NCBI GenBank assembly: GCA_041484545.1
Contig: JBGPHU010000003.1
Coordinates: forward strand, 1 to 37,263
DNA from: Candidatus Eiseniibacteriota bacterium
Lineage (GTDB): Bacteria; Eisenbacteria; RBG-16-71-46; SZUA-252
Length of the DNA: 37,263 nt
Reading direction: 5' to 3'
A program made the position numbers and the translations under genes. Below are positions 6,419-32,023 of the stretch, piece by piece; position 1 is the first letter of the stretch; every line of letters starts with the position of its first letter. Under the pieces are notes generated by a model, which made no database searches, was not told where the DNA came from, and worked only from the letters and a program-made list of their open reading frames with translations.

Positions 6419-6436
6419 GGAGGCGCTCGGAGAAGT

Positions 6437-7267: not shown

Positions 7268-7309
7268 GTATGTATTCCGCGCGCGCGCCGTGGGTTACGA
7301 TGCGCGCCG

Positions 7310-12842: not shown

Positions 12843-13021
12843 GGACTGGCTCCCTTGGTCGGCATGGTGAGGCGGGGCGCGCTTCGGGGGGGGCGTTGTT
12901 CCGGAACAGAGGAAGCATACGCTCGCCAAGCCTTGTGTAAAGTGGTTTGCCCCTCCGCGCTTGAAAATTCACCAAATTCAGGCGAGAATGAGGTGTCGGT
13001 CGAGGAGCCGGCCACCCACAC

Positions 13022-13843: not shown

Positions 13844-13847
13844 CCAC

Positions 13848-15164
13848 GTGACCCCAAAGGCCGGCGTCGACTCGCTCGACTTCCTCTGCGTGGGCCTGAA
13901 CCACGAGACCTCGCCGCTCGAGATCCGTGACGCGCTCGTGATGAACGAGGCCGAGATGGAGCGCGCGATCCGCGTTCTGCGCGACCGCGGAGGAGCCGAG
14001 GAGGCGCTGAGTCTCTCTACCTGCAACCGCACCGAGATCTACGCGCGCGGGGCTTCGGTCTCCGATCTTCCCCTCTTCGTGAACGACCTCCTGCGCGAGA
14101 TCAAGGGCATGGACCTGGGGGCGCGCGGCCACAGGCTCTACGCCTACCGGGAACCCGATTCGGTGCGCCACCTATTCCGGGTCGCGTGCGGACTCAACTC
14201 GCAGGTTCTGGGGGAGCCGCAGATCGTGGGCCAGGTGAAGGACGCCATCACGCTCGCCGCGCGGTCCGGCGGCTCCGGCCCCGTCACGGAACGGCTCCTG
14301 GACGCGGCGCTTCGATGCGCCAAGCGGGCGCGGACCGAGACCGGAATCGGACGCGGACCCATTTCTTCCGTCTACGCGGCCGTCAATCTCGCCTCGAAGG
14401 TGCTCGGGCATCTTGGCGACAAGCGCGTGCTCCTGGTCGGGTCGGGCGAGATGGCCGGGCTGGCCATGTGCCACCTCATGGATTCCGGGGTTCATCAGTT
14501 CGTGATCGCCGCGCGGAATCAGGTGCGGGCCACGGCGCTCGCATCGCGAACCGGCGCGCGCGTGGTGAGCCTGGAGGCGATCCCCGTCGTGCTCCCCGGC
14601 GCCGACATCGTGGTGTCCGCCACGTCGGCCCCCGAACCCGTGATCTCGGGCGAGACCGTGCGCGCGGCGATGAAGATCCGGAAAAATCGCACCCTGCTCC
14701 TGGTCGACCTCGCCGTGCCTCGCGACGTCGATCCGGGAGCCGCCAAGCTGCCCAACGTGTTCCTCCACGATCTCGACGCGCTGGCGGGGATCGTCGCCCA
14801 GAGTCTGGAGCAACGCAGGTCCGAAATCCCCAGGGTCGAGGCGATCATCGAGGATGAGGTGCGGCGGTTTCTGCGCTGGCACCGCTCGCTCGAGCTCAAG
14901 CCCACCGTGACCGCCTTCCGGGGCCAGTTCGAGCGCATCGCGCAGGAGGAGCTGGAGCGCCATCGGGGCCGCTTTCGCCCCGAGGACCAGCCGGCGCTCC
15001 AGGCGCTCACGCGGGGCATCGTGCAGAAGCTCCTGCATCGCCCCACCACGCTGCTCAACCGGGCGGGAGAGGACGGCACGGGGATCCGGCGCATCGACAC
15101 GGTGCGCGAGCTGTTCGGGATCGAGCGCGAGGAGGGTTCCGATGAGGATCGGGACCCGCGGTAG
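13848..15164 (+). CDS. hemA: Glutamyl-tRNA reductase
   Basis: GLNH, STCNRTE, GEPQIVGQVK, GSGEM and DLAVPRD motifs. Confidence 0.97.
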   Translation: MTPKAGVDSLDFLCVGLNHETSPLEIRDALVMNEAEMERAIRVLRDRGGAEEALSLSTCNRTEIYARGASVSDLPLFVNDLLREIKGMDLGARGHRLYAYREPDSVRHLFRVACGLNSQVLGEPQIVGQVKDAITLAARSGGSGPVTERLLDAALRCAKRARTETGIGRGPISSVYAAVNLASKVLGHLGDKRVLLVGSGEMAGLAMCHLMDSGVHQFVIAARNQVRATALASRTGARVVSLEAIPVVLPGADIVVSATSAPEPVISGETVRAAMKIRKNRTLLLVDLAVPRDVDPGAAKLPNVFLHDLDALAGIVAQSLEQRRSEIPRVEAIIEDEVRRFLRWHRSLELKPTVTAFRGQFERIAQEELERHRGRFRPEDQPALQALTRGIVQKLLHRPTTLLNRAGEDGTGIRRIDTVRELFGIEREEGSDEDRDPR

Positions 15165-16062
15165 CGCCCTCGCGCTCGCCCAGAGCGAGCACGTGCGCGC
15201 CTCGCTCCCCGGCGGCCCCCGCGAACACCGGCTCGTGATCATCAAGACCTTGGGGGACCTGAACCCCAACGCCTCGCTCTCGAGAATCGGCGGGAAAGGG
15301 GTGTTCACGAAGGAGATCGAGGAAGCGTTGCTCCGGAACGAGATCGACATCGCGGTCCATTCGCTCAAGGACCTCCCGACGGACGAGCGCCCCGGGCTCA
15401 AGCTCGGCGCCCTTCTCCCCCGCGAGGATGCCCGGGACGCGTTCGTGAGCCGCGAAGGAGTCCCATTCGAGCGCCTTCGGTCCGGGGCGACGGTCGGCAC
15501 CTCCTCGCTCCGGCGCCGATCGCAGGTGCTCGCCAGGCGTCCCGATTTGCGCGTCACGGACCTGCGCGGGAACGTCCCGACGCGCCTCGCGCGTCTCGAG
15601 GATGGAACCCTGGACGCGATCATCGTCGCGGCCGCGGGGCTGAACCGCCTGAAGCTGTCGAACCGCGCGACTCAACTGCTCGACGAAGCGATGATGCTCC
15701 CCGCTCCGGGCCAGGGAGTTCTTGCGATCCAGATCCGCGCGGGAGACCGCGCGACGGCCGACCTTGTCCTGGCTTTGAACGACGGCGAGGCGGCGGCGGA
15801 AGCGACCGCCGAGCGCGCGCTCCTGGAGGGTCTCGGGGGCGGCTGCCTCATCCCCGTCGGCGCCCGCGCGCGGGCGAAGGACGGCACGCTGGAGCTGAAC
15901 GCGTACGTCGGACACCCCGATGGTAGGCCCTCCATTCGCTCGAGCGCCGTAGGGAGAGCCGCGGAGCCCGCGGACCTGGGGCGCGCCCTCGCGGTCACGA
16001 TGCTGGGACAGGGCGCCCGGCCGATCCTGGACGAGGTCCGGAGCGCGGAGCGCTTCCCATGA
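15142..16062 (+). CDS. hemC: Hydroxymethylbilane synthase
   Basis: IGTRGSALA, GKGVFTKE, HSLKD, GTSSLRR, RGNV and GGC motifs. Confidence 0.97.
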   Translation: MRIGTRGSALALAQSEHVRASLPGGPREHRLVIIKTLGDLNPNASLSRIGGKGVFTKEIEEALLRNEIDIAVHSLKDLPTDERPGLKLGALLPREDARDAFVSREGVPFERLRSGATVGTSSLRRRSQVLARRPDLRVTDLRGNVPTRLARLEDGTLDAIIVAAAGLNRLKLSNRATQLLDEAMMLPAPGQGVLAIQIRAGDRATADLVLALNDGEAAAEATAERALLEGLGGGCLIPVGARARAKDGTLELNAYVGHPDGRPSIRSSAVGRAAEPADLGRALAVTMLGQGARPILDEVRSAERFP

Positions 16063-16838
16063 ACCCGCTCTTCTTCCTCACACGTCTGGAGCCGACCGAC
16101 GACATGCTGGCCGCCCGAGCGTCGGCGTTGGGATTCACCGTGCTGCGTGTCCCGCTCCTCGCCACGGAGCCTGGCCATGACAGCGCGGGCGTCCTGAGAC
16201 GGATCTTGAGCCTCGGGGACAAGACCGCGATCGCCTGGACCAGCCGGCGCGCGGCGCAGGCTCTCGCACGGATCGTCCCGCGCGCGGGCGGCGTTCTTTC
16301 GCGCGTTCCTCTCTACGCTCTGGGCGAGGAGAGCGCAGGGCCGGCGCGCAGGGTCGGTCTCGATCCGATGATCCCCGCCGATGGCGAGGGCGCGGGGGCC
16401 GAAGGCCTGGCGAAATTCATCCTGGCGCGCGCATCGGAAGACGGGATCCAGTCGGTCCTCATCCTGCGCGGCGACCGGTCGCTGCCGGATCTACCGGACG
16501 GAATCAAGTCCGGAGGAATCCGGGTATCCTCCATCGAGGTCTACCGCACGCGGTTCCTCGACGCCGACGTGGGCGGGATCACGACCTGGCTCGAAAAGGA
16601 GGCCCCGGTGGCGGTCGCTTTCTTCAGTCCCTCCGGCGTTGCCGCGCTCGAACGGCTGCTTCCGGAGCGGCCGCGCGCGGCGCTCCACGCGTGCGCCGCC
16701 GCGATCGCGCGCGGCCACACGACGGCCAAGGCTCTCGACCGCCACGGATATAGGCACGTGTTCCGCCCCCAAGGCGGAAGCACGTTCGAGGCGGTCGCAC
16801 ACGAGGCGCTCCTGACGACGTATGGGGGGCGGCCATGA
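16059..16838 (+). CDS. hemD: Uroporphyrinogen-III synthase
   Basis: LTR, WTS..A, VYRT and FFSPSGV motifs; located between hemC and hemB with ATGA overlaps. Confidence 0.85.
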   Translation: MNPLFFLTRLEPTDDMLAARASALGFTVLRVPLLATEPGHDSAGVLRRILSLGDKTAIAWTSRRAAQALARIVPRAGGVLSRVPLYALGEESAGPARRVGLDPMIPADGEGAGAEGLAKFILARASEDGIQSVLILRGDRSLPDLPDGIKSGGIRVSSIEVYRTRFLDADVGGITTWLEKEAPVAVAFFSPSGVAALERLLPERPRAALHACAAAIARGHTTAKALDRHGYRHVFRPQGGSTFEAVAHEALLTTYGGRP

Positions 16839-17818
16839 GCTTTCCGGCGACGCGCATGCGGCGGCTGCGGGCGAGCGAATCGCTCCGCGCTCTGGTCCGC
16901 GAGACCTCGCTCTCGCCGCGGAGCCTGGTGGCGCCGCTCTTCGTCTGTCACGGCGAGAAGGTGCGGCGACCCATCGCTTCCATGCCCGGGCATGCGCAGC
17001 TCTCCGTGGATCTTATTGTCGAGCGCGCGAATAAGCTCGCGTCCCTGGGCGTCGGCGGACTCATCCTCTTCGGCATTCCGGCAAGGAAAGATCCCGAAGG
17101 CAGCGAAGCCTACGATCCCGAGGGAATCGTTCCCCGCGCCTTCCGCGCGATCAAGGCCGCGGAGCCCGAGATCCTCCTCTGGGCGGACGTCTGTCTCTGC
17201 GAGTACACCGACCACGGCCATTGCGGGGTGGTGCGGGACGGCGACGTGGACAACGACCGGACCCTTCCGCTCCTGGCCCGCGCCGCCGTCGTCTACGCCG
17301 AGGCGGGCGCCGACATCGTGGCGCCCAGCGACATGATGGACGGCCGCGTGGGCGCGATAAGGAAGGCGTTGGATCAGGCGGGGCACCGGGAGATCCCGAT
17401 CGTGGCCTACTCCGCCAAGTACGCGAGCGGCTTCTACGGACCGTTCCGCGAGGCCGCCGAGTCGGTTCCCCAGTTCGGCGACCGGCGCGCCTACCAGATG
17501 GACCCCGCGAATTCGGACGAGGCGCTCCGCGAGGTCGCGCTGGATCTGGAAGAGGGGGCGGACGCCGTGATCGTCAAGCCGGCGCTTCCCTACCTGGACG
17601 TGATCCGGCGCGTGAAGGACCGCTTCCACGTTCCGGTGGTCGCCTACAACGTCTCGGGCGAATTCGCGATGATCAAGGCGGCCGCCCAGCTCGGCTGGCT
17701 GGACGGCGAGCGGGTCGCTCTCGAATCGCTCACGTCGATCCGCCGCGCGGGCGCGGACCTGATCATCACCTATTTCGCGGAAGAGTTGGCGCCGCTCCTG
17801 GGTAAGAACAGAGCATGA
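16835..17818 (+). CDS. hemB: Porphobilinogen synthase (Zn-type)
   Basis: RMRRLR, DVCLCEYTDHGHCG, PSDMMDGR, YGPFREA, VKPA and YNVSGE motifs. Confidence 0.98.
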   Translation: MSFPATRMRRLRASESLRALVRETSLSPRSLVAPLFVCHGEKVRRPIASMPGHAQLSVDLIVERANKLASLGVGGLILFGIPARKDPEGSEAYDPEGIVPRAFRAIKAAEPEILLWADVCLCEYTDHGHCGVVRDGDVDNDRTLPLLARAAVVYAEAGADIVAPSDMMDGRVGAIRKALDQAGHREIPIVAYSAKYASGFYGPFREAAESVPQFGDRRAYQMDPANSDEALREVALDLEEGADAVIVKPALPYLDVIRRVKDRFHVPVVAYNVSGEFAMIKAAAQLGWLDGERVALESLTSIRRAGADLIITYFAEELAPLLGKNRA

Positions 17819-19125
17819 GCGAGACGCGAGCCCTCCAGGCCACGAAGAATAGCGACGCCCTGCACAAGTCGGCGCTCGGCCTCTTTCCCGGCGGCGTGAA
17901 CTCGCCCGTGCGCGCGTTCCGCGCGGTCGGCGGGAATCCCAGGATCATCGTCTCGGCGCGCGGCGCCTATCTCACCGACGCGGACGGAAACGAGCTCCTG
18001 GACTACGTGCTGGGGTGGGGACCGATGCTTCTCGGCCACGGTCGCCCCGAAGTCGTGGGCGCGGTGGAACGGCAGCTCCGGAACGGCACCCTCTTCGGGA
18101 TGACGAACCCGCTCGAGATCGAGCTGGCCGAGCGGGTGCGCCGCTTCTACCCCGCCGCCGACCGGCTGCGCTTCGTCTCCTCGGGCACCGAGGCGACCAT
18201 GGCGGCGATACGGATCGCGCGGGCCGCGACGAAGCGCGACGCGATCGTGAAGCTGGACGGCTGCTACCACGGCCACGCGGATTCCTTCCTCATCCGGGGC
18301 GGCTCAGGCCTCCAGACATTGGGCATTCCCGACTCGGCGGGCGTTCCGGCAGCGGTCGCCGCGGAGACGCGCGTGGCCGGGTTCAACGACCTGGCCTCGG
18401 TGGCCGCGGCGCTCGCGTTTACGCCGGGCGCGGTCGCGGCGGTCATCCTCGAGCCGGTGATCGGAAACATGGGCGTGATCCCGCCGGACCCCGCGTTCCT
18501 CCCCGGTCTGCGCGAACTCTGCGACCGGGCCGGTGTCCTCCTCGTGTTCGACGAGGTGATGACGGGATTCCGCGTCGCGCGAGGGGGCGCGGCCGAGCGT
18601 TATGGCGTCCGCCCCGATCTCGTGACCCTGGGCAAGGTGATCGGGGGCGGGCTGCCGGCGGCGGCCTTCGGAGGCAGGGGCGATCTCATGAGCCTCGTGG
18701 CCCCGGAGGGACCGGTCTACCAGGCCGGGACCTTCGCCGGACACCCGCTGGCCATGGCCGCGGGGGCGGCGACTCTGTCCGTGCTCGAAGACGATACCGC
18801 CCTGTTCCGCCGCGCCGAGGCCCGGACCACCATGCTCGCCGCGGGCCTGCGGGAGATCCTGACCCGGCGTAAGATTTGCGGCGTGGTGAACGCGATCGGC
18901 TCGATGTGGACGCTCTTCTTCGGCGTGGATCGGGTTTCCTCCGCCGACGAAGCCCGCCGCGCCGACACCGCGCTCTACGCCCGGTTCTTCCAATCCATGC
19001 TGGAGCGCGGGGTGTTCCTTCCGCCTTCGGCGTTCGAGAGCGCGTTTCTCTCCGACGCCCACGGCGAGGCGGAGATCGACCGCACGCTCGAGGCGGCGGA
19101 CGAAGCCCTGGAGGGAATGTCATGA
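17815..19125 (+). CDS. hemL: Glutamate-1-semialdehyde 2,1-aminomutase
   Basis: PGGVNSPVRAF, SGTEATM, GCYHGH, FDEVMTGFR, GKVIGGG and YQAGT motifs. Confidence 0.98.
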   Translation: MSETRALQATKNSDALHKSALGLFPGGVNSPVRAFRAVGGNPRIIVSARGAYLTDADGNELLDYVLGWGPMLLGHGRPEVVGAVERQLRNGTLFGMTNPLEIELAERVRRFYPAADRLRFVSSGTEATMAAIRIARAATKRDAIVKLDGCYHGHADSFLIRGGSGLQTLGIPDSAGVPAAVAAETRVAGFNDLASVAAALAFTPGAVAAVILEPVIGNMGVIPPDPAFLPGLRELCDRAGVLLVFDEVMTGFRVARGGAAERYGVRPDLVTLGKVIGGGLPAAAFGGRGDLMSLVAPEGPVYQAGTFAGHPLAMAAGAATLSVLEDDTALFRRAEARTTMLAAGLREILTRRKICGVVNAIGSMWTLFFGVDRVSSADEARRADTALYARFFQSMLERGVFLPPSAFESAFLSDAHGEAEIDRTLEAADEALEGMS

Positions 19126-20180
19126 CCCAGGGCCCCTCGCTCGCGCCCGCCTATTCCTTCCTCCGCGCCTGCCGGAACGAGCCCATCGGCGAGACGCCGA
19201 TCTGGATCATGCGTCAGGCCGGGCGCTACCTTCCCGAGTATCGGGCCGTGCGCGAGAAACATGGGTTCCTCGAGATCTGCCGCACGCCGGAGCTCTGCGC
19301 GGAGGTGACGGCGCAGCCCATCGAGCGGTTCGGGTTCGACGCGGCGATTCTCTTCTCCGACATCCTGATTCCGCTCATCGCCATGGGCGTCCCGATCGAG
19401 TTCGATCCCGGGCCCAAGTTGGGCAAGCGCATCACCCACCGCCGCGAGATTGCGTCACTGGAGTGGCGCGGCGCCGCCTCGCTGCCGCACGTCCGCCCGG
19501 TGATTCGCGCCGCGAAGGAACGTCTTCATGGTCGGGTCCCGCTCATCGGCTTCGCGGGGGCGCCCTTCACCATGGCTTCCTACTTAGTGGACGCGGGCGC
19601 CTCGAAGGACGCCGCGCTCACGCGGAGCTTCCTGGCGCGCGACGAGGCGGGATTCGCGGAGCTGCTGGACGTGCTGGCGGGAGCCACCATCGACTACCTG
19701 AAAGAACAGGTCGCGGCCGGGGTGGACGCGGTGATGCTCTTCGATACCCAGGCGGGCTGGCTTCCGCCGGGCGATTTCGCCCGCACGGCGGCCGCCGCGG
19801 CCGATCGCGTGCTTCGCGCGATCCCGAAATCGACGCCAACGATCTACTTCGCGCTCGCCTCCTCCAACGGCCAGCTCGACGCGATGCGGGCCATCCATTC
19901 CGACGTGATCGGGCTGGACTACCGCGTCTCCCTGAGCCAGGCGCGCGCGATCCTGGGCAGCGGCCGCTGCGTCCAGGGGAACCTCGATCCGGCCGCCCTC
20001 GTCGGCCCGCCCGAGCAGGTGGTGAAGCGCGCGGAGGCGGTCCTGCGCGAGAACGGCGGCCGTCCCGGATTCATCTTCAACCTGGGGCACGGCATCTATC
20101 CCGACACGCCCGTCGAGAACGTCGCGCTCCTCGTGGAGACGCTGAGGCGCCATCGCAATCCGGCGCAGAGGATCCTGTGA
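19122..20180 (+). CDS. hemE: Uroporphyrinogen decarboxylase
   Basis: Start trimmed to ATG 19122 (ATGA overlap). PIWIMRQAGRYLPEY, FSDIL, GFAGAPFT, QGNLDP and NLGHG motifs. Confidence 0.97.
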   Translation: MTQGPSLAPAYSFLRACRNEPIGETPIWIMRQAGRYLPEYRAVREKHGFLEICRTPELCAEVTAQPIERFGFDAAILFSDILIPLIAMGVPIEFDPGPKLGKRITHRREIASLEWRGAASLPHVRPVIRAAKERLHGRVPLIGFAGAPFTMASYLVDAGASKDAALTRSFLARDEAGFAELLDVLAGATIDYLKEQVAAGVDAVMLFDTQAGWLPPGDFARTAAAAADRVLRAIPKSTPTIYFALASSNGQLDAMRAIHSDVIGLDYRVSLSQARAILGSGRCVQGNLDPAALVGPPEQVVKRAEAVLRENGGRPGFIFNLGHGIYPDTPVENVALLVETLRRHRNPAQRIL

Positions 20181-21568
20181 CACGTCCCACCGCGGCCGTC
20201 ACCGCCGATCTCCTGGCGAAGTACGACCGTCCCGGTCCGCGCTACACCTCGTATCCGACCGCGGTCGAGTTCCACGAAGGGTTCACGCCGCAGCGCTACC
20301 AGGAGAAGCTCGACCAGGCCGCGGACGCGAAGGACGAGCCGCTCTCGGCCTACGTCCACCTCCCCTTCTGCCGCGAGCGATGCAGCTTCTGCGGCTGCAA
20401 CGTGATCATCACGCAGAAACCGGGCGTCGCCGGCGCCTACATCGAGGACTTGGAGCGCGAGGTCGCGCTGGTCGCGGAGCGGCTCCGGAAGCGCACCCGG
20501 CTCGTGCAGTACCATTGGGGAGGCGGGACGCCCACGTTCCTCTCCCTCGAAGAGATCGAGCGCGTCTTCCGGGCCTTCGCGGACCGGTTCACGTTCGAGC
20601 CGGGGGCCGAGATCGCGATCGAGGTCGACCCGCGCGTCACCACGCACCGCCAGGCGGAGCTTCTGAAGCGGCTCGGGTTCAATCGGATTTCCATGGGCGT
20701 CCAGGATTTCGACACCGACGTCCAGGAGGCGGTGAACCGCTACCAGACCTTCGAGCAGACGAAGGACCTCCACCTGCACCTCCGCGGGCTGGGCGTCGAA
20801 TCGATCAACTTCGATTTCATCTACGGACTTCCGCACCAGACGCCCGAGTCCTTCCGGAAGACGATCCAGCTCGCGCTCGAGCTTCGCCCGGACCGGGTCG
20901 CGGTCTATTCCTACGCGTTCGTGCCCTGGATCAAGGCGCACCAGAAGGCGATCCACCTCGAGGACCTCCCGGCGCGCGAGGTGAAGCTGGAGCTCTTCGG
21001 CATCGCGCACGAGCTTTTCACGGCGGACGGATACCAGCAGATCGGGATGGACCACTTCGCTCTCGAGAACGACTCGCTCGCCCGCGCGGCCAGGGACCGC
21101 ACTCTGTATCGCAACTTCATGGGGTACACGACGCACCCGGCCCGCGACTCGGTCGGCTTCGGCGTGTCGGCCATCGGGGATCTGGGGGGCGCCTTCGCGC
21201 AGAACACGAAAAAACTGAACCGGTACAAGGACGCCCTGGATTCGGGGCTGCCGCCCATCGAGCGCGGGTTCGAGCGGAGCAAGGACGACGAGATACGCCG
21301 CGACGTGATCCAGAGCCTCATGTGCAACTTCTTCCTCGACGTCCGCGCGGTCGAGCGCGCGCACCGGATCGATTTCGCGTCCTACTTCGCGGAAGCGCTC
21401 CGGGAGCTGGACCTCGGCCCCGCGCGGAACGGATTTCTCACGCGCACGGCCGAGACGATCGAGGTCACGCCGCAGGGCCGCCTCTTCGTCCGGAACGTCT
21501 GCATGGCATTCGACGCCTATCTGAAACGACACGAGGGCGAGAAGCGGCTCTTCTCGCGCACGGTCTGA
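20177..21568 (+). CDS. hemN: Oxygen-independent coproporphyrinogen III oxidase (radical SAM)
   Basis: Start trimmed to GTG 20177 (GTGA overlap). GPRYTSYPTA, HLPFCRERCSFCGC, GGGTP, GMDHF and RNFMGY motifs typical of true HemN. Confidence 0.97.
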   Translation: MTRPTAAVTADLLAKYDRPGPRYTSYPTAVEFHEGFTPQRYQEKLDQAADAKDEPLSAYVHLPFCRERCSFCGCNVIITQKPGVAGAYIEDLEREVALVAERLRKRTRLVQYHWGGGTPTFLSLEEIERVFRAFADRFTFEPGAEIAIEVDPRVTTHRQAELLKRLGFNRISMGVQDFDTDVQEAVNRYQTFEQTKDLHLHLRGLGVESINFDFIYGLPHQTPESFRKTIQLALELRPDRVAVYSYAFVPWIKAHQKAIHLEDLPAREVKLELFGIAHELFTADGYQQIGMDHFALENDSLARAARDRTLYRNFMGYTTHPARDSVGFGVSAIGDLGGAFAQNTKKLNRYKDALDSGLPPIERGFERSKDDEIRRDVIQSLMCNFFLDVRAVERAHRIDFASYFAEALRELDLGPARNGFLTRTAETIEVTPQGRLFVRNVCMAFDAYLKRHEGEKRLFSRTV

Positions 21569-22527
21569 AGACCGGAATCCTGCTCCTCAATCTCGGCGGT
21601 CCGGACACGCTCGGCGCGGTGCGCCCCTTCCTGACCCGGCTGTTCACCGACCGCGAGATCCTCCAGCTTCCCGGCGGCTCCCTGGGCCAGGCCGTGATCG
21701 GACGGGCGATCGCCTGGAAGCGCACGCGCGAGGTGAAGGAGAACTACGCGAGGATCGGCGGCGGCTCTCCCATCGTTCGCTGGACGACGCTCCAGGGGCG
21801 AGGCCTCGTGGAACGGCTCGGGGCTCGCGGCCACGACGTCGCCTTCGCGCTCGCGATGCGCTACTGGGACCCCTCGACGGACGATGCCTTGGACGAGCTG
21901 GAGCGGGCGGGCGTGGACCGGCTTCTCGCACTCACCCTCTATCCCCACTACTCGGTGGCCACCACCGGATCGAGCGTGGCCGAGCTCGAGCGGGTCATGA
22001 AGAGGCGGGGGACGAAGCTTCCGCTGGACCGCATCGACACGTGGTACGACCATCCGGGCTACCTCGACGCGGTCGCGCTCCGCGCGAAGGAAGCGCTCGC
22101 GCGATTCGCCCCCGACGCCCGACCCACGATTCTCGTCAGCGCGCACGGACTGCCCAAGCAGTTCATCGAGGCCGGCGATCCCTACATCGAGCACATCCGG
22201 GTGACCACGGAGGGGGTCCTGCGCCGCCTTCCGGATCTGCCCCACGTCGTGGGCTACCAGAGCCGCGTCGGTCCGGTCGAGTGGATCGGACCGAGCACGG
22301 ACGAAGTGATCCGGGACCTGGCGGCGCGCGGCGTCCTGGACGTGGTCGTGATCCCGATCAGCTTCGTCTCCGATCACGTCGAGACGCTCTACGAGATCGA
22401 CCTCCTCTACGGAGACCGGGCCCGCGCCCTCGGCATCAAGAATTTCAGGCGCTCCGACTCCCTCAACGATTACCCGCCCTTCCTGGACGCGCTCGCGGAC
22501 TTGGTCGAGCCGAAGCTCCGGGCATGA
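21565..22527 (+). CDS. hemH: Ferrochelatase, apparent CTG start
   Basis: KTGILLLNLGGP, IGGGSP, AMRYW, LYPHYS, SAHGLP, QSRVGP.EW and FVSDHVETLYEID motifs. The only plausible start is the CTG overlapping the hemN TGA. Confidence 0.93.
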   Translation: MKTGILLLNLGGPDTLGAVRPFLTRLFTDREILQLPGGSLGQAVIGRAIAWKRTREVKENYARIGGGSPIVRWTTLQGRGLVERLGARGHDVAFALAMRYWDPSTDDALDELERAGVDRLLALTLYPHYSVATTGSSVAELERVMKRRGTKLPLDRIDTWYDHPGYLDAVALRAKEALARFAPDARPTILVSAHGLPKQFIEAGDPYIEHIRVTTEGVLRRLPDLPHVVGYQSRVGPVEWIGPSTDEVIRDLAARGVLDVVVIPISFVSDHVETLYEIDLLYGDRARALGIKNFRRSDSLNDYPPFLDALADLVEPKLRA

Positions 22528-25118: not shown

Positions 25119-25147
25119 TTGACTCGAAATACCGCGCTTCGTAGTAT
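25119..25147 (+). promoter_or_regulatory. sigma70-like promoter of the fatty acid hydroxylase gene
   Basis: TTGACT (25119-25124), 17 nt, TAGTAT (25142-25147). Confidence 0.6.
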
Positions 25148-25192: not shown

Positions 25193-25858
25193 ATGGAAGC
25201 CATGGCCAAGACCACCTACGCGAACCTTCCCATCAACCACGGCGAGAAACCGATCCGCCTTTTCAAGTCGGACGCCCTCGAGTTCTTCACGCACATTCAC
25301 CCGGCCGTCGTGCTCCTCTTGTTCGTGCCGGTCGTGGTCTTCTTCCTCGCGCGCGCCACGATGGGGGGCCAGGCGGAGGCGCCGATCGTCCTCGTGCTCG
25401 CGGCCTACGCCGCCGGGATCCTGGTCTGGTCCCTGAGCGAGTACCTGCTTCACCGGTTCGTCTTCCACTACGAGCCGAAGCAGCCGTGGCTCCAGCGGGT
25501 GTGGTACCTGATCCACGGCGTCCATCACGAGCAGCCCCAGTGCAAGACCCGCCTGGTCATGCCCCCGATCCTCAGCATCCCGCTCGCGTTCTTCTTCTAC
25601 GCGCTGTTCTACGTCGTCATGGGCGTGGTCCTCGGGATGCCTCACTTGAACGGTCCGGCCTTCGCGGGCTTTCTCACGGGGTACCTCTGCTACGACATGG
25701 TGCACTACGCGGAGCATCACCTCTCGATGCGCTGGGGCTTCCTGAAATACCTCAAGGTCTATCACCTCAAGCATCACTACAAGAATCCCAACCACGGCTT
25801 CGGTGTCAGCTCCCCCGTCTGGGACGTTGTATTCCGCACGAAGCCGAAAGAGCCCTAA
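25193..25858 (+). CDS. Fatty acid hydroxylase superfamily di-iron enzyme, FA2H/Scs7-like (sphingolipid 2-hydroxylase candidate)
   Basis: Four His boxes EYLLHRFVFH, HGVHHEQP, YDMVHYAEHH and HLKHHY, plus RLVMPP and GFGVSSPVWD. No cytochrome b5 domain. Confidence 0.88.
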   Translation: MEAMAKTTYANLPINHGEKPIRLFKSDALEFFTHIHPAVVLLLFVPVVVFFLARATMGGQAEAPIVLVLAAYAAGILVWSLSEYLLHRFVFHYEPKQPWLQRVWYLIHGVHHEQPQCKTRLVMPPILSIPLAFFFYALFYVVMGVVLGMPHLNGPAFAGFLTGYLCYDMVHYAEHHLSMRWGFLKYLKVYHLKHHYKNPNHGFGVSSPVWDVVFRTKPKEP

Positions 25859-25883
25859 CCGCCCCCAACCCCGTGGCGCCCAC

Positions 25884-25916
25884 CGGGCCCTTCTCGAGGC
25901 GGGCCCGATTTTTTTT
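25884..25916 (+). terminator. Intrinsic terminator after the hydroxylase
   Basis: Stem CGGGCCC (25884-25890) / GGGCCCG (25901-25907) followed by A and a run of 8 T. Confidence 0.8.
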
Positions 25917-25948
25917 CCGCGGACCGAATCGCCCCCTATACTGTCGCC

Positions 25949-26728
25949 GTGGAAGCCTTGGCCGCGGTCGGCAACCGGGTGCGCCGCGTTCTGGAGGTCG
26001 TCCAGGACGTCACGCTGTTCTGCGTCTCGGTGCTCCGCTCCGCCTTCTTTCCTCCCTACTACAAGCACGAGATCGTCGAGCAGATCCACTTCTCGATGAT
26101 CGGCTCCATGTTCATCGTGATGTTCTCCTCGCTCGTCGCCGGGCAGGCGCTGGCGATCCAGCTCGCGCGCGAGCTCGCGAAGACCGGCGCCAAGTCGGAG
26201 CTGGGGCACTTCATGGTCATCTCCTCGGTTCGCGCGCTGGGCCCGGTCCTCACGGGAATCGTGGTGGCTTCGCGCATGTCGGCCGGGATCACGGCGGAGC
26301 TGGGCACCATGAAGTCCAGCGACCAGATCGACGCCCTGGTCGCCTTCGGCACAGACCCCATGAAGCGGCTCGTGGCGCCCCGCATGATCGGTCTCTGGAT
26401 CGCGCTACCGGTGCTGACGATCCTTGGCGACACACTGAGCGTCGTCGGCGGCGGGTTCGTGGGGCTGGGTTACCACATCACGCTTCAGTCCTATTACAAC
26501 GGCGTCGCCAAGTACCTCACGCCGGCGAACCTTCTCGTGGGGATGATCAAGCCCGTCTTCTTCGCAGTGCTCATCACGACGGTGGCCTGCTGGAAGGGTC
26601 TCACGTCGGGCGGAGGCGCCAAGGGAGTGGGCGTGGCCACGACGCAATCGGTCGTGATCTCCTCGGTCGGGATCCTGGTCACCGACTTCATCTGCACCAA
26701 GCTCGTCTTCCGGGTCCTGGGCTGGTAG
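25949..26728 (+). CDS. mlaE: MlaE/YrbE-family ABC permease
   Basis: RALGPVLTG, AELGTMKSSDQIDAL..G.DP..LVAPR and GGAKGVGVATT.SVV motifs. Confidence 0.93.
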   Translation: MEALAAVGNRVRRVLEVVQDVTLFCVSVLRSAFFPPYYKHEIVEQIHFSMIGSMFIVMFSSLVAGQALAIQLARELAKTGAKSELGHFMVISSVRALGPVLTGIVVASRMSAGITAELGTMKSSDQIDALVAFGTDPMKRLVAPRMIGLWIALPVLTILGDTLSVVGGGFVGLGYHITLQSYYNGVAKYLTPANLLVGMIKPVFFAVLITTVACWKGLTSGGGAKGVGVATTQSVVISSVGILVTDFICTKLVFRVLGW

Positions 26729-26732
26729 TCCG

Positions 26733-27566
26733 ATGATCGAATTCCGAAACGTCGTCTTCTCGATCGGCGACCACACCATCCTGATCAACGTATCGTTCCG
26801 GGTGACACGGGGCCAGACACGCGTCATCCTCGGGCCCTCGGGCTCGGGGAAGAGCACGATTCTCCGGCTGCTCATGGGCCTCTGGCAGCCGGACTCGGGC
26901 AGCATTCTCGTGAACGACGAGGACATCACGCAGGTGAGCCCCCAACGGCTGCGGGAGATCCGGAGAGCGATGGGAATCGTCTTCCAGCACGGGGCCCTGT
27001 TCGACTCCATGACGGTCGGCGAGAACGTCGGGTATACGCTGCTCGAGGACAAGCACGACGAACCGGAGATCGAGAAGGCCGTCGAGAAATACCTGACGAT
27101 GGTCGGGCTTGATCCCGATCTTGAGGACCGCATGCCCGACGAGCTTTCCGGAGGCATGCAGCGGCGCGTCGCGATCGCTCGCGCGCTCGCGGCCCGCGAT
27201 CCGGGCATCCTGCTCTATGACGAGCCGACGACCGGCCTGGACCCCCAGAGCGCGGAGCGGATCACGGATCTCATCCTCAGCTTGAGGGATACCATGGGCA
27301 AGACCTCGATCATGGTCACCCACGATATTGCCGATGCATTCAAGGTGGGAAACCGCATCACGGTGCTGGACCGGGGGATGGTCGTGTTCGAGGGCACGCC
27401 TGAAGAGCTGAATGCCGCGAATGATCCGTTCATTGCGGAGTTCCTGGCGCCATTTCGCAAAGCGGTTGTGGCGGCCCGCCTGCGCATGGATCAGGTCCGC
27501 GGCGGCGCGGCGTCCGGACGCGCCACGCCCGACCCATTCCCGCAGCAACCCGGAGGAAGCCTGTGA
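26733..27566 (+). CDS. mlaF: MlaF/Mkl-family ABC ATPase
   Basis: GPSGSGKS, FQHGALFDSMTV.ENV, LSGGMQRRV, YDEPTTGLDP and VTHD motifs. Confidence 0.94.
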   Translation: MIEFRNVVFSIGDHTILINVSFRVTRGQTRVILGPSGSGKSTILRLLMGLWQPDSGSILVNDEDITQVSPQRLREIRRAMGIVFQHGALFDSMTVGENVGYTLLEDKHDEPEIEKAVEKYLTMVGLDPDLEDRMPDELSGGMQRRVAIARALAARDPGILLYDEPTTGLDPQSAERITDLILSLRDTMGKTSIMVTHDIADAFKVGNRITVLDRGMVVFEGTPEELNAANDPFIAEFLAPFRKAVVAARLRMDQVRGGAASGRATPDPFPQQPGGSL

Positions 27567-28492
27567 AACGGACCGGCCGCGTCCCGTTCATGAAGCTTCA
27601 GATCGGGTTCTGGGTGCTCGTGGCTTTTGCGCTCCTGTTGTGGGCCACGTTCCAGTCCGGGAGCATCAAGTTCTTCGGCCGCGAGGAGAAGATCCACCTC
27701 ACGTTCAATTCCGTGGGCGGCCTCGAGGAGGGCTCCACGGTCCGCCTGAACGGAGTGCCGGTGGGACACGTGCGGGACATCTCGCTGGCGAAAAGCGGAA
27801 ACGACGTGGTGGTGGAGCTGGGGGTGAAGAGCGGCACCCGCGAGCGGCTCCACCGCGGCGCGACCGCGCGCGTCACCTCGACCGGATTTCTCGCCGAGCT
27901 GTACGTCGAGCTGGAGGGCGGCGACCTGAGCCAGCCGCCGATCCAGGACGACCGCGAGATCTCGGTCTCCTCCCCCCCCGATCCGAACGCGGCGATGAAG
28001 AAGATCACGGCGATCACGGACAGTTTACAGGTGCTGCTCGGGAACTTGAACAAGGCCGGGAGGGCGCTCGGAAACGGGCGCGGCACCCTCGGCCGCCTGA
28101 CTCAGGACGAGCGTCTCTACGAGGAGCTGGTGGAGCTGAGCCACAACGCGAACGTCCTCACGGCCAGGCTCAACGAGAACCAGTCGCGGGTCTCGACCCA
28201 GTTCATGACCCTCGCGGCCTCGCTCGACTCGCTCGTTCAGAAGATGCAGAACGGCCAGGGAACCATCGCCCAGCTCATGAACGACTCCACGCTGCACCAG
28301 AAGCTGGCGTCGAGCACGGCCCGGGCCGACTCCATCCTGGGCTCGATCGCTTCGGGCAGGGGGACGTTCGGAAGGCTCTACGCGGATTCGACGCTTTACG
28401 ACGACACGAAGGCGCTGATGGCTTCGATGAAACGTCTCATGGCGGAAATCGAGAAGGATCCCAAGAAGTACTTCAAGTTCAGCGTTTTCTAG
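27563..28492 (+). CDS. mlaD: MlaD/MCE protein with a long helical C-terminal extension
   Basis: N-terminal TM helix; MCE motif GGLEEGSTVRLNGVPVGHV; three GxGT[LIF]xxL repeats; C-terminus PKKYFKFSVF. Confidence 0.92.
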   Translation: MKRTGRVPFMKLQIGFWVLVAFALLLWATFQSGSIKFFGREEKIHLTFNSVGGLEEGSTVRLNGVPVGHVRDISLAKSGNDVVVELGVKSGTRERLHRGATARVTSTGFLAELYVELEGGDLSQPPIQDDREISVSSPPDPNAAMKKITAITDSLQVLLGNLNKAGRALGNGRGTLGRLTQDERLYEELVELSHNANVLTARLNENQSRVSTQFMTLAASLDSLVQKMQNGQGTIAQLMNDSTLHQKLASSTARADSILGSIASGRGTFGRLYADSTLYDDTKALMASMKRLMAEIEKDPKKYFKFSVF

Positions 28493-28513
28493 CCTCGCCG
28501 CTGCCCGCGAGCC

Positions 28514-29500
28514 CTACACCCAGCCGGCTTCCCGGTACCAGAGCGCCGTGGCGCGCACGCCTTGCTCCAGCGGGGTGGCGGGAACCCATCCCAGTTCCTC
28601 CCGGATCTTCCGCGAGCTCACGAGCCAGGCGCCGGCCGTGATCTCGCGAAACTTCTCGCGAGAGAAGAAGGGCGCCCGGCGCGTGACGGCGCCGGCAAGC
28701 TCCCCCGCGAGCGCGCCCGCCTGGAGCAGGAACCCGGGAACCGGAAGACGCAGGGCCCAGGTCCCCAGAGCGCTCTCGATCGCGTCCCCCACTTCCTCGT
28801 AGCTCGTGGTGTCCGGGCCTCCCACGAAGTAGATCTGGCCCACCGCCGTCTCCTGGGTGAGCGCCGCCCAGACCGCGCGCGCGTGGTCCTCCGCGTAGAC
28901 GATGCTGAACGACTTAGCCCCGCCCAGATACGGCCTCAGGTGATGCTTCACGGCGCGGAAGTACTTGAGCAGCGCCTTTTCCCTCGGGCCGTAGACGATG
29001 GGAGGACGGATCGACGTGACCGGGAGCCGGTCGGCCGCGCGCATCACGAGTGTCTCCCCGCCGAGCTTGGACCTGCCGTAGGTGGAAACCGGCCGCGGAG
29101 CGAGATCCTCGGTCACCGGCGCTCCGTTCCGGCTGGGTCCGGCGGCCGCCTGGCTCGAGATGTAGACGAACCGCCGGGGCCTGGGATCGGCCCGGAGCGC
29201 CGCGGCGAGGACGTTCTCGGTGCCCGACACGTTGGCGCTGTAGAACTCGGCCTCGTCCCGGGCATACGTGAGGCCGGCCGCGTGGACGATCCAGTCGGCC
29301 CCGGCCACCGCCTGGTCCAGCCCGCCGGGGTGGCGGACGTCGCCCTCCGCGTATTCGACTTCTTTGCCTTCGAGCCAGCGGCGGGAGGAGGAGCCGCGCA
29401 GGAGACAGCGGACGCGGGCGCCCTGGCGCAGGAGCTCGTCCACGACGTGGCTCCCGACGAACCCCGAAGCGCCCGTGACAAGCGCCAGCGGCGCCTTCAC
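28514..29500 (-). CDS. Extended SDR (NAD-dependent epimerase/dehydratase); candidate oxidized-ceramide reductase CerR
   Basis: Start trimmed to GTG 29500 (GTGA overlap with the upstream GNAT). TGASGFVG, HAAG, SSQAA, YGRSK and RPPIVYGP motifs. The CerR role is inferred from context. Confidence 0.85.
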   Translation of the reverse strand: MKAPLALVTGASGFVGSHVVDELLRQGARVRCLLRGSSSRRWLEGKEVEYAEGDVRHPGGLDQAVAGADWIVHAAGLTYARDEAEFYSANVSGTENVLAAALRADPRPRRFVYISSQAAAGPSRNGAPVTEDLAPRPVSTYGRSKLGGETLVMRAADRLPVTSIRPPIVYGPREKALLKYFRAVKHHLRPYLGGAKSFSIVYAEDHARAVWAALTQETAVGQIYFVGGPDTTSYEEVGDAIESALGTWALRLPVPGFLLQAGALAGELAGAVTRRAPFFSREKFREITAGAWLVSSRKIREELGWVPATPLEQGVRATALWYREAGWV

Positions 29501-30612
29501 AGACTCCGCTCGTAGATCCGGTAGGTCTTGTAGTGGTCCCCGTGCACGGCCTCGATCAGCCGGTTGACCAGATCGTTGTCCTCGAGCGTCCAACCGACCT
29601 CGCACCAGACGTACCCGGCCGCGCGTGACGCCACCGCCGCCTGGTGAACCAGGGCAGCGTCGATGCCGCGGCGCCGGTAGCCCGACTTGATCCCGAGCGC
29701 CATCAGCCGGAGCGTGCGGATCTTTCGAAGGGTCCAGAGCAGGCGCACAATCCCGAACGGGAAGAGCCGCCCGCGCAGCGGCTTCAGCGCCACGTTCACG
29801 TCGGGGATCGCGAGCGCGAAGCCGACCGTCTCGCCGTCGATTTCCGCGAAGAGCGCGAGATCGGGCACGATGGCCGGCCGGAGCTGCTTCGCCATGTGGT
29901 CGATCTCGTGCTCGGTCATCGGGACGAAGCCCCAGTTCTTCTCCCAGGCCGAGTTGTAGATGTTCTTCACGTGCTGGAGCTCCTGGTTGAAGCGCTTCAT
30001 GTTCATCGGACGGACGCGCACGTGGTACCGGTCGCGCGCCTTCTGCGCGATCCGCGCGACCTTCTCGATCTCCGCGACGGGCGATTCCGGAATCGGCACC
30101 TTGAAGGCGAAGAGGTCCTTGATCTTCGTCAGCCCCGCGGCCTCCACCCAGGATGGGTAGCTCGGTGGGTTGTACGGCATGAGGATGGTCGGCGGCTCCT
30201 CGAAGCCGCGGATCAGGAGCCCGCAATCGTCGTTGGTTGTGAAGTTCATCGGCCCGCGCATCACGCGCGCTCCGCGCTCCCGTCCCCACCGCTCGGCCGC
30301 CGCGAGCAAAGCGCCCGTGGCATCCGCGGATTCCGCCTCGAAGAAACCGAATGCCGCCTGCCGCTCCCCGTGATAGGCGTCGTGGTTCCGGTCCACGCTC
30401 GCCGCGATGCGTCCCACGTCTCGGCCGCCGTCGCGCGCCAGGAAATAGGCGGCCTCGGCGTGCTCGAAATAAGGGTTCTTCCCGGGCGTGAGCCGGACGC
30501 GCTCGTCCGAGGTGAGCGGCGCCACCCAGTTTGGATCGTCTCGGTAGATGTCGTGGGGGAGGCTGATGAAGCGGGCGAAATCCTTCTTGCTTAAGACGGG
30601 GACGACATCCAC
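29497..30612 (-). CDS. Tandem-GNAT acyltransferase; candidate bacterial ceramide synthase bCerS
   Basis: WVAPL, NPYFEH, VGRIAA, FGFFE, GPMNF, MPYNP.YP, NSAWEKNWGFVP, PDVN, RLMALG..YRRRG and WTLEDN motifs match the YghO/bCerS-like family. Overlaps the spt stop. Confidence 0.82.
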   Translation of the reverse strand: MDVVPVLSKKDFARFISLPHDIYRDDPNWVAPLTSDERVRLTPGKNPYFEHAEAAYFLARDGGRDVGRIAASVDRNHDAYHGERQAAFGFFEAESADATGALLAAAERWGRERGARVMRGPMNFTTNDDCGLLIRGFEEPPTILMPYNPPSYPSWVEAAGLTKIKDLFAFKVPIPESPVAEIEKVARIAQKARDRYHVRVRPMNMKRFNQELQHVKNIYNSAWEKNWGFVPMTEHEIDHMAKQLRPAIVPDLALFAEIDGETVGFALAIPDVNVALKPLRGRLFPFGIVRLLWTLRKIRTLRLMALGIKSGYRRRGIDAALVHQAAVASRAAGYVWCEVGWTLEDNDLVNRLIEAVHGDHYKTYRIYERSL

Positions 30613-31874
30613 GGCATCCCCGGCGGCGGCGTCGCGTTCTCAGCGGAGGACATGACCAGACCCATCTCCGCGTCCACTTCCTTCACGATGCGAAGAATGG
30701 TGTCCAGTTGCTGGTCCTCGTGGGTGGCCATGTAGGAAGTGCGGAGGAGATCCCGACCCGGCTGCACCGCGGGCACGACGATGGCGTTCACGAAAACGCC
30801 GCGGTCCAGGATCTTCCGCCATGCCTGCATCGTCTTGATCCGGTCGCCGATGAAGATCGGGACGATCGGCGTCCCGATCCCGGTCCCGACGTCGAGCCCG
30901 AGCGACTTGAATCCGTTCCGCATCTTGTCCGAGATCTGCCTGAGGCGCACGCGAAGCTGGGGCTCGTGCTCGATGATCTCGAGCGAGGCGAGCGCGGCCG
31001 CGGCGCTCGCGGGCGTGATGCTGGCGCTAAAGATGAGCGCCCGCGCGTGGTGGCGCAGGTAGTCCATCACGGCGCGCGGGCCCGCGATGAAGCCGCCGAG
31101 CGAGGCGAAGGACTTCGAGAACGTTCCCATGATCAAGTCCACGTCGTCCTCGACCCCGAGCGCCTCGGAGGCGCCGGCGCCGCGATTCCCCAGAACGCCG
31201 AACCCGTGCGCGTCGTCCACCATGAGCCGCGCGTGGTACTTCCGCACCACGCGCACAATCTCTGCCAAGGGCGCGATGTCCCCTTCCATGCTGTAGAGCC
31301 CGTCCACCACGACAAGCTTCCCCGCCTTCGCGGGAATCGACCCGAGCACGCGCTCCAGGTCGCGAACATCGTTGTGACGGAACCGCTTCACGTCCGCGGG
31401 GCTCAGCCGCGCGCCGTCCACGATGCAGGCGTGCGCCTCCTTGTCCATCACCACGACGTCGCCCTTGTCCATGAGGGCCGAGATGCTGCCCAGGTTCGTG
31501 AGATACCCGGTCGAATAGACGAGCGCTGCCTCCTTGCCCGTGAACTTGGCCAGGCGCTCCTCGAGCTGAACGTGCATTTCCAGCGTCCCATTCAGGAATC
31601 GGGAGCCGTTGTTCGAGGTGCCGAAGCGGCGCAGCGCGTCTTCGGCGGCGGCGATGACCTTAGGGTGCTTCGTCAGGCCCAGGTAGTTGTTCGAGCCCGC
31701 CATGATGATGCGGCGGCCGTCGATGGTTACCTCGGTGCCGTGGTTTTGGGCAATCGGGAGAAAATAGGGGTAAATGCCTGCTGCCTTGGCCAAGCGGTGT
31801 TCTTTGAAGCGATTACACTTGTCGAATAGATCCACGCGTACCCTGGGTTTTGGTCTTATGGATTCGCTCGCCAC
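30591..31874 (-). CDS. spt: Serine palmitoyltransferase (alpha-oxoamine synthase, PLP)
   Basis: GIYPYF, GSNNYLGLT, GSRFLNGT, DGLYSMEGD, DDAH and PLP-lysine motif GTFSKS (BioF/Kbl usually have GTL[SG]KA), plus LIFSAS. Alternative start at GTG 31835 (VDLFDKC). Confidence 0.85.
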   Translation of the reverse strand: MASESIRPKPRVRVDLFDKCNRFKEHRLAKAAGIYPYFLPIAQNHGTEVTIDGRRIIMAGSNNYLGLTKHPKVIAAAEDALRRFGTSNNGSRFLNGTLEMHVQLEERLAKFTGKEAALVYSTGYLTNLGSISALMDKGDVVVMDKEAHACIVDGARLSPADVKRFRHNDVRDLERVLGSIPAKAGKLVVVDGLYSMEGDIAPLAEIVRVVRKYHARLMVDDAHGFGVLGNRGAGASEALGVEDDVDLIMGTFSKSFASLGGFIAGPRAVMDYLRHHARALIFSASITPASAAAALASLEIIEHEPQLRVRLRQISDKMRNGFKSLGLDVGTGIGTPIVPIFIGDRIKTMQAWRKILDRGVFVNAIVVPAVQPGRDLLRTSYMATHEDQQLDTILRIVKEVDAEMGLVMSSAENATPPPGMPWMSSPS

Positions 31875-32023
31875 TCAGAGCGCCGGATCGAGACGTAAAC
31901 GGCCTCCCGACGACCATACCCGAATCGGGAAAGCCAGTCAATCTACCTTGCTCGGACGCCTCCCTGCCCCTACTATCCCTCTCGTTGATTGGGACTTAGC
32001 CCCTTTCCCGCACGGAGGCTCCC

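Follow-up and report, generated by a model that had tools for sequence, protein, structure and literature searches.

The 37,263-nucleotide stretch of DNA analysed here (hereafter the window) is the entire contig C3 (JBGPHU010000003.1) of a metagenome-assembled genome (MAG; GCA_041484545.1) from an uncultured sediment bacterium of Candidatus Eiseniibacteriota; the genome measures 2.6 Mb in 206 contigs, is 89% complete and has a G+C content of ~68%. We focused on seven genes in two facing blocks: a minus-strand operon for a putative ceramide pathway, comprising an alpha-oxoamine synthase resembling serine palmitoyltransferase (Spt), a GNAT-type N-acyltransferase and an extended short-chain dehydrogenase/reductase (SDR), and a plus-strand block comprising a hydroxylase and mlaE-mlaF-mlaD (Table 1). 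Pfam profile searches provided domain calls for all seven genes, and every feature of this layout that a first-pass annotation of the DNA had described was found in place. The coupling of the minus-strand genes and their closeness to the convergent block could be read directly in the sequence. The synthase and GNAT genes overlap by 22 nt (GNAT start GTG at 30612, synthase stop TAA at 30591–30593), the start codon (GTG) of the SDR gene and the stop codon of the GNAT gene share the sequence GTGA (a 4-nt overlap), and the SDR stop codon (28514–28516, minus strand) is separated by 21 bp from the mlaD stop, which ends at 28492. For the synthase, position 31874 marks the earliest in-frame start codon that follows a stop; the real start may lie a few codons further downstream. 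A terminator scan found no terminator-like hairpin in the 21-bp gap, and the predicted RNA fold of 28460–28560 was no better than that of shuffled sequence (z 0.73). Two sigma-70-like sites, identified by consensus match only, were present in 7.3 kb compared with 0.6 expected, each upstream of the first gene of a block.

Table 1 Genes and other features of the two facing blocks, with positions in the window
Feature	Position	Strand	Evidence
Sigma-70-like promoter match TTGACT-17-TAGTAT, 46 nt upstream of hydroxylase start	25119–25147	+	Consensus match only
FA2H/Scs7-like hydroxylase, 221 aa	25193–25858	+	Pfam FA_hydroxylase PF04116, E 6.8e-19
mlaE, ABC (ATP-binding cassette) permease	25949–26728	+	Pfam MlaE, E 7.6e-64
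mlaF, ABC ATPase	26733–27566	+	Pfam ABC_tran, E 2.5e-35; NCBIfam MlaF 180.8 bits, under cut-off
mlaD, MlaD/MCE protein, 309 aa	27563–28492	+	Pfam MlaD, E 2.4e-18
Convergent mlaD/SDR intergenic gap, 21 bp	28493–28513	.	Read from sequence
CerR-like extended SDR, 328 aa	28514–29500	-	Pfam Epimerase, E 1.2e-38
bCerS-like tandem-GNAT N-acyltransferase, 371 aa	29497–30612	-	Homology to sphingolipid-cluster GNATs; Pfam Acetyltransf_1 (weak)
Spt-like alpha-oxoamine synthase, 427 aa	30591–31874	-	Pfam Aminotran_1_2, E 6.5e-57
Sigma-70-like promoter match TTGACT-17-TATGGT, 39 nt upstream of synthase start	31913–31941	-	Consensus match only

The minus-strand operon probably encodes a bacterial ceramide pathway of the kind found in Caulobacter and Bacteroidetes, here in Candidatus Eisenbacteria. 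The first-pass annotation had named the three genes spt, cerS and cerR, in pathway order, and this identification held in rankings against NCBIfam models and Protein Data Bank (PDB) entries, in a tree, in full-length alignments of the GNAT and in reciprocal best matches. The gene order is that of the pathway proposed by the Klein laboratory (PMC11087976), and the families of the second and third enzymes, bCerS and CerR, were defined in serine-derived ceramide synthesis (Stankeviciute et al. 2022, as cited by later papers).

The placement of the synthase as an Spt-like enzyme that is neither BioF nor Kbl is well supported by sequence comparison. SerpalmtaseCFB was its best NCBIfam model (492.6 bits), ahead of SerpalmtaseBetaP (413.8), bioF (386.7) and Kbl (350.2). 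In a PDB sequence search, bacterial serine palmitoyltransferases filled the first ten distinct places (395.8 to 293.2 bits), followed by the first match of another kind, a BioF/Kbl-type enzyme at 266.9 bits. The GTFSKS motif reported in the first pass, which holds the pyridoxal phosphate (PLP) lysine, was confirmed by alignment with PDB 8guh, with which the other PLP-site motifs also align. The only other alpha-oxoamine synthase in the genome, on contig C16 and 41% identical, adjoins threonine dehydrogenase (tdh) and passes the Kbl/BioF cut-offs (561.6 bits), thus accounting for the housekeeping Kbl. A phylogeny against BioF and Kbl had been suggested as a check, and the synthase separated from both: in a 60-row tree, 57 bCerS-linked synthases from many phyla split from three outgroup rows (E. 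coli BioF, E. coli Kbl and the genome's own Kbl) with a Shimodaira–Hasegawa-like approximate likelihood ratio test (SH-aLRT) value of 99. A tblastn segment had to span 80% or more of the query to enter the tree, and locus L002 was omitted as a duplicate of L089.

The GNAT is a well-supported bCerS homologue with a predicted tandem-GNAT fold, as judged by both alignment and structural modelling. It aligned end to end with homologues from Caulobacteraceae, Phenylobacterium, Steroidobacteraceae, Sphingomonadaceae and Novosphingobium at 34–42% identity (38–42% for the Caulobacteraceae and Phenylobacterium loci, 34% for Novosphingobium). The Caulobacteraceae/Sphingomonadaceae loci hold the SDR, a small acyl carrier protein (ACP) with a DSL motif and the synthase together, with the GNAT ~6–7 kb off and once beside lptF/G; an SDR–ACP–synthase group followed by a distant GNAT is the Caulobacter layout (PMC11324152). 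When the search was reversed, starting from such alphaproteobacterial-type clusters, the window GNAT was matched first in the genome (285 versus 168 bits for the next protein), as was the window synthase (268 versus 223 bits). The tandem GNAT of the first-pass annotation is not visible to Pfam, which detected a single weak Acetyltransf_1 match (residues 214–347), but it stands at the level of the fold: the best Foldseek matches of a confident AlphaFold2 model (predicted local distance difference test (pLDDT) 93.3, predicted template modelling score (pTM) 0.90) were the tandem-repeat GNATs 7q3a, 5kf1, 2wpw and MshD 1ozp, with query-normalised TM-scores (TMq) of 0.55–0.63. No sequence relative of the GNAT was found in the PDB, and the relatives retrieved by homologue search, at least 7884, gave no help in naming it, being called only generically 'GNAT family N-acetyltransferase'. 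The genome also carries a second bCerS-like paralogue (G000:C30:18027-19124; L088:7971-9146, minus), 32% identical over its full length and without a Pfam match, which stands alone beside msrA; similar paralogues (32–39%) occur in several genomes of the same genus and family.

The third gene encodes an extended SDR, as first proposed, with a TGASGFVGSHV nucleotide-binding motif from residue 9, a YGRSK (YxxxK) catalytic motif and Pfam Epimerase/3Beta_HSD matches. Sequence searches alone returned generic extended-SDR matches, including NDUFA9 chains in the PDB (51.6 bits, not the top match). We assigned the protein to CerR on the basis of its fixed place after bCerS and of reciprocal best matches, as the SDRs of alphaproteobacterial, gammaproteobacterial and Gemmatimonadaceae spt clusters match the window SDR best in this genome (L069 at 128, L077 at 117 and L023 at 195 bits; next match 56 bits for L069 and 89 bits for L023), at 31–38% identity. 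The Rossmann motif, beginning at residue 9, leaves no space for a cleavable signal peptide.

Several observations weigh against assignment of the operon to ceramide synthesis. The synthase lies under every curated NCBIfam Spt cut-off (CFB 492.6 versus 640, BetaP 413.8 versus 500, AlphaP 337.5 versus 670); since these models are lineage-specific, we read the scores as placing it outside the modelled lineages and not as excluding it from Spt. The trees hold no characterised Spt, bCerS or CerR rows, and orthology with Caulobacter rests on synteny in Caulobacteraceae MAG loci, not on comparison with the C. crescentus protein itself. For the SDR, the best NCBIfam model is hopanoid-associated HpnA (141.9 bits, under cut-off), and identity to the cluster SDRs of other phyla is no more than 29–38%. 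Specificity for the amino acid and the acyl donor is not readable from the sequence of the synthase, whose use of serine is suggested by homology. The low Spt scores would also suit a trio that makes a different N-acylated amino-alcohol, built on a 1-deoxy base (from alanine or glycine) or on a cysteate-derived, sulfonolipid-type base. Alpha-oxoamine synthases for other amino acids are close relatives, a cysteate-C-fatty acyltransferase reaching 241.7 bits in the PDB search, and 1-deoxysphingolipids have been reported in nature (PMC11334938). We nevertheless consider such a product very unlikely, as serine palmitoyltransferases take the first ten places among PDB matches and the first two among NCBIfam models, and the partner genes belong to families that were defined in ceramide synthesis from serine.

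Under the ceramide assignment, the chemistry can be proposed from homology. The Spt-like enzyme would condense L-serine with a long-chain acyl thioester to give 3-ketosphinganine, the bCerS homologue would add the N-acyl chain and the SDR would reduce the 3-keto group to yield dihydroceramide; the placing of N-acylation before reduction is taken from the Klein-laboratory model. The FA2H/Scs7-like hydroxylase would most likely 2-hydroxylate the amide-linked acyl chain. Acyl-CoA is the most likely thioester, given that the window contig encodes neither a dedicated ACP nor an acyl-ACP synthetase. Their absence had been noted in the first pass and was borne out by profile matches that lie on other contigs only: the single PP-binding match in the assembly, its one ACP, is on contig C158, and five AMP-binding matches are all elsewhere. 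Bacteroidetes Spt uses acyl-CoA, whereas the Spt of alpha-, beta- and gammaproteobacteria works with a dedicated AcpR (PMC11324152); together with SerpalmtaseCFB as the best NCBIfam model, the missing genes fit an acyl-CoA-using Spt of the CFB type.

Description of the locus as a complete module was an overstatement, because the window contains no head-group enzyme, whereas in three sister families (f7, f10 and f3) cerR is immediately followed by a PAP2_3 gene as a further member of the operon, and a major facilitator superfamily (MFS) transporter is encoded nearby. Such spt-bcerS-cerR-PAP2_3 loci were seen in L091–L094, L096, L098, L177, L178 and L221; in the f7-like ones (L091–L094, L177, L178 and L221), PAP2_3 is followed by a conserved 355–374-aa protein without a Pfam family. 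PAP2_3 is the superfamily of Aur1-type phosphoceramide synthases, and the gene is likely to represent a phosphosphingolipid extension that is absent from the window's family. The best PAP2_3 gene of this genome lies outside the window, on contig C118, and the end product could be free (hydroxy)ceramide or a lipid decorated by genes elsewhere, for example that one.

A survey of 151 Eisenbacteria genomes revealed a bCerS-family match (E <= 1e-20) in 84, a count that includes one unpublished genome (G015). Matches were present in 30 of the 31 genomes of the window's family (f1), its own genome excluded; the four among 60 f2 genomes were weak and at the level of paralogues (29–37% identity). The closest relatives of the GNAT in species-representative genomes (80–90% identity) are mostly titled Candidatus Eisenbacteria. 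The synteny survey suggested with the first-pass annotation bore out the core of the operon, as spt, bcerS and cerR lie side by side in one orientation in all Eisenbacteria-like loci that are long enough to include the three. In 13 of 18 close genome loci, a convergent mlaD comes next after the SDR gene, and recurrence of the same block in related genomes and in f1-like metagenome contigs argues that it is more than a chance arrangement.

Some loci depart from this picture in their labels or content. Five with a GNAT 59–86% identical (L005, L007, L011, L012 and L018) bear the labels Binatia, Dormiibacterota, Omnitrophota, Bacteroidota and Limnocylindrales; in the trees they nevertheless fall among the Eisenbacteria, and they probably come from MAGs that were mislabelled or mis-binned. 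An insert of ~2.6 kb between cerR and mlaD, present in about half of the relatives, encodes an 883-aa secreted-type protein (CarboxypepD_reg, FlgD_ig) (L009:10032-12683, and the same position in L011–L013, L016, L017, L020, L157, L159, L164 and L165). The insert is absent from the window and is unrelated to lipids. Outside the phylum, Solirubrobacterales loci (L024, L030, L032–L038, L042, L044, L048–L055, L063 and L066) carry the synthase divergent from bCerS; no CerR-like SDR was detected within 8 kb, and the reduction may depend on a gene at another locus or on a different protein family.

A link between the hydroxylase and the ceramide operon is plausible from sequence and gene neighbourhood. 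The best PDB match of the hydroxylase is yeast Scs7p (4zr1, E 1e-28, residues 13–216), a ceramide fatty-acid 2-hydroxylase, and its His motifs HRFVFH, HGVHH, HYAEHH and HLKHHY align with all four of Scs7p, in agreement with the FA2H-like, His-box enzyme first described. The gene was found in 36 of the 151 genomes (f1 29/31, f3 4/7, f4 2/2), every one of which also has a bCerS match. Beyond the phylum, its homologue abuts bCerS in a Solirubrobacter locus (L050), two alphaproteobacterial loci (L069 and L070) and a Sphingomonadaceae locus (L079), and this recurrence of the adjacency in unrelated lineages is the best evidence that the enzyme acts on ceramide.

Other features of the hydroxylase pull in the opposite direction. 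It lacks the cytochrome b5 domain of eukaryotic FA2H (221 aa, matching from Scs7p residue 175, with no other Pfam domain), and we therefore describe it as an FA2H-like catalytic domain only. In families f3 and f4 it is not beside bCerS but lies elsewhere in the genome. At the locus itself, the gene is co-directional with mlaE (90-bp gap) and opposite to the ceramide operon, and two f1-like metagenome contigs (L160 and L161, MlaD 68–69% identical) run from queE to mlaE with no hydroxylase between. These arrangements, and synteny of the whole region within f1, would be expected if the hydroxylase and MlaEFD had general envelope-lipid functions and merely neighboured the operon, with the hydroxylase acting on ornithine/lipid-A-type acyl chains or on free fatty acids; LpxC is present, indicating that lipid A is made. 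We regard this as unlikely, given that the closest solved relative of the hydroxylase acts on ceramide, that the gene was seen in bCerS-positive genomes only and that it abuts bCerS in three unrelated lineages.

The transporter encoded beside the operon is best described as an MlaEFD/mammalian cell entry (MCE)-type ABC system and not as canonical Mla, because no match to MlaC (PF05494) or MlaA (PF04333) was found in the 89%-complete genome and no STAS gene (MlaB) was found at the locus. Its MlaD comprises an N-terminal membrane helix, an MCE domain and a helical, repeat-bearing C-terminal region ending NPKKYFKFSVF. An AlphaFold2 model built from 14 sequences was poor (mean pLDDT 57.4; 76–85 for the MCE domain, <55 for the helical C-terminal part). 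Proteins of this type carry about four copies of G-x-G-T-[LF]-G-x-L...D..LY in their C-terminal half and end in a nearly invariant NP[KR][KR]YFKFSVF, which is common to relatives on many low-GC metagenome contigs.

The first-pass annotation had suggested that the locus may also move ceramide across the envelope, and several findings favour a dedicated transporter that takes (hydroxy)ceramide from the inner membrane toward the outer membrane. A second mlaE-mlaF-mlaD set in the genome sits among housekeeping genes (contig C91, between dnaB and radA-ispD-ispF-ddl; MlaE copies 38% identical). A 56-row MlaD tree divided the proteins of the phylum into two clades (SH-aLRT 100), with the window type ('type 2') in f1, f3, f7, f10 and f14; rows in the MlaD trees were segments covering at least 75%, and G087:C471 was not placed. 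Judged by score, the window type occurs in 46 of the 151 genomes, all of them bCerS-positive (46/84, with G015 counted) and in none of the 67 bCerS-negative genomes, a co-occurrence that does not amount to a statistical test because the families are few and related. The transporter genes adjoin the operon in two arrangements, convergent in f1 (8 bp to 2.7 kb) and co-directional in f7 (3.5–7 kb). The DUF1028/TPR gene beside spt in the window comes directly after mlaEFD in f10, so that in f1 the operon lies between mlaEFD and this gene. Only one lptF-lptG pair is present in the genome, and sphingolipid producers of this sort may use another route (bioRxiv 10.64898/2026.04.12.717747).

Comparison with a wider set of genomes and contigs made dedicated sphingolipid transport doubtful. 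A metagenome scan seeded with the window MlaD clade yielded 80 loci, of which 21 were f1-like, 4 f7-like and 55 others. Three of the four f7-like loci show the synthase-to-mlaD arrangement, and L174 shows an MFS gene and mlaEFD only. The 55 other contigs (GC 0.35–0.73) encode an MlaD 28–37% identical with the same C-terminal motif, yet no match to the synthase, GNAT, SDR, hydroxylase or PAP2_3 was found on any of them. Flanks of 5 kb or more are present on both sides of mlaEFD in 11 of these contigs and on at least one side in 24. In a second, 77-row MlaD tree, which took 32 of the 80 metagenome loci, picked for length, the sampled rows from these contigs fell on the window-type side, indicating that this MlaD type is widespread and not a sphingolipid-specific invention. 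We accordingly rejected a reading of the window MlaEFD as a specialised paralogue. Within the phylum, linkage to the operon holds in f1 and f7 but not in f3, where mlaEFD and the operon are 360 kb apart, or in f10 and f14, where they lie on different contigs; the bCerS-positive families f4, f5, f6, f9, f12 and f13 gave no window-type match. The f1 neighbourhood is syntenic from queD to citrate synthase, so that adjacency of mla may reflect descent alone, and in f7, f10 and f3 an MFS transporter gene accompanies the operon more constantly. We also set aside the mlaE-mlaE-mlaF genes that lie 3–5.5 kb from the synthase in most of the Solirubrobacterales loci, as the intervening genes are unrelated and no MlaD was detected. 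The link between Mla and the operon is thus weak, and the transporter genes are a weak candidate for sphingolipid transport.

One scenario for f1-type loci joins these observations: the operon moved between mlaD and the DUF1028 gene, the former neighbour of mlaD, lost PAP2_3 and the MFS gene and gained an FA2H-like neighbour, and MlaEFD exports (2-hydroxy)ceramide. We hold this fuller sequence of events to be more doubtful still than dedicated transport as such. Were it true, bacterial sphingolipids would have an export pathway of the Mla/MCE kind, separate from the one that Caulobacter operates with LptF2G2C2. For bacteria other than Caulobacter, how sphingolipids get to the outer membrane is stated to be open (PMC11324152; bioRxiv 10.64898/2026.04.12.717747), and the genome has no LptF2G2C2 counterpart, for which reasons the Mla hypothesis is still of interest. 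Our literature searches found no work linking Mla or MCE to sphingolipids, one Mla search having matched mostly unrelated words.

Elsewhere in the window, the minus strand carries an SOS mutagenesis cassette (2203–7294) of LexA (6437–7294), an IMS-family Y-family polymerase (5174–6436) and a DnaE2-like Pol III alpha (2203–5397). A haem-synthesis run occupies the plus strand at 12992–22527 and encodes a cytochrome c assembly protein, glutamyl-tRNA reductase, a class-III aminotransferase, uroporphyrinogen decarboxylase and ferrochelatase.

The core of the locus is a predicted ceramide cluster of known kind; what is peculiar is the compact overlapping operon, the absence of ACP genes, the CFB-like Spt and the FA2H-type hydroxylase. 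The lineage had been thought probably not known to make sphingolipids. Our literature search found no paper naming Eisenbacteria together with sphingolipids, but an earlier study predicted Spt-like genes in as many as 38 phyla from one habitat (PMC11334938), and its phylum lists may already include Eisenbacteria. With this operon, an uncultured candidate phylum of soil and sediment joins the likely sphingolipid producers. An operon of three overlapping genes is unusually compact and, with no ACP requirement visible, would be convenient for heterologous expression. The recurrent link of FA2H/Scs7-type genes with bCerS in several phyla offers a testable candidate for bacterial ceramide 2-hydroxylation, unlike the DesA-type enzyme of Caulobacter.

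Comparison with known systems places each part of the locus. As in the E. coli MlaFEDCB–MlaA system, MlaE, MlaF and MlaD homologues are encoded in one operon, although here the order is E-F-D, MlaB is missing from the locus and MlaD has a long C-terminal region. In length and layout this MlaD is nearer to MCE proteins of the Mce/Pqi kind, and its best NCBIfam model is MCE TIGR00996 (under cut-off). The LptF2/LptG2/LptC2 system of Caulobacter (bioRxiv 10.64898/2026.04.12.717747) is likewise an ABC-type envelope lipid transporter beside sphingolipid genes. It was the only bacterial sphingolipid transport system that we found in the literature, and the preprint contains no occurrence of 'Mla'. 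LptF2/G2/C2 belong to the Lpt family and have a function shown in Caulobacter, whereas the window system belongs to the Mla/MCE family and is a weak candidate for such a role.

The hydroxylase resembles yeast Scs7p and human FA2H in its catalytic membrane domain and four His motifs, without the b5 domain of the eukaryotic enzymes, and bacterial FA2H-type enzymes occur in myxobacteria. For the synthase, the Bacteroidetes/Sphingobacterium Spt (PDB 3a2b, 8guh) is the best sequence match (395.8 bits, residues 16–398), with the GTFSKS, HA..DG and DDAH motifs aligned, and the CFB model ranks first among NCBIfam models even though the score stays under the cut-off. The single operon seen here contrasts with Bacteroidota, in which the sphingolipid genes are reportedly scattered (PMC11334938). 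Caulobacter crescentus uses the same three enzyme families, in spt (CC_1162), cerS/bcerS (CC_1154, CCNA_01212) and cerR (CC_1164, CCNA_01222). Caulobacter, however, relies on AcpR and AasR, neither of which is on the window contig, has LptF2/G2/C2 paralogues that this genome lacks beside its one lptFG pair, and has a DesA-family hydroxylase (CC_0202; PMC11324152) in place of an FA2H/Scs7-type enzyme. Its CerR is reported to be periplasmic (PMC11087976), whereas the window SDR has no signal peptide. Finally, the Caulobacter genes are spread over ~10 genes, whereas in Eisenbacteria the set forms a single overlapping operon.

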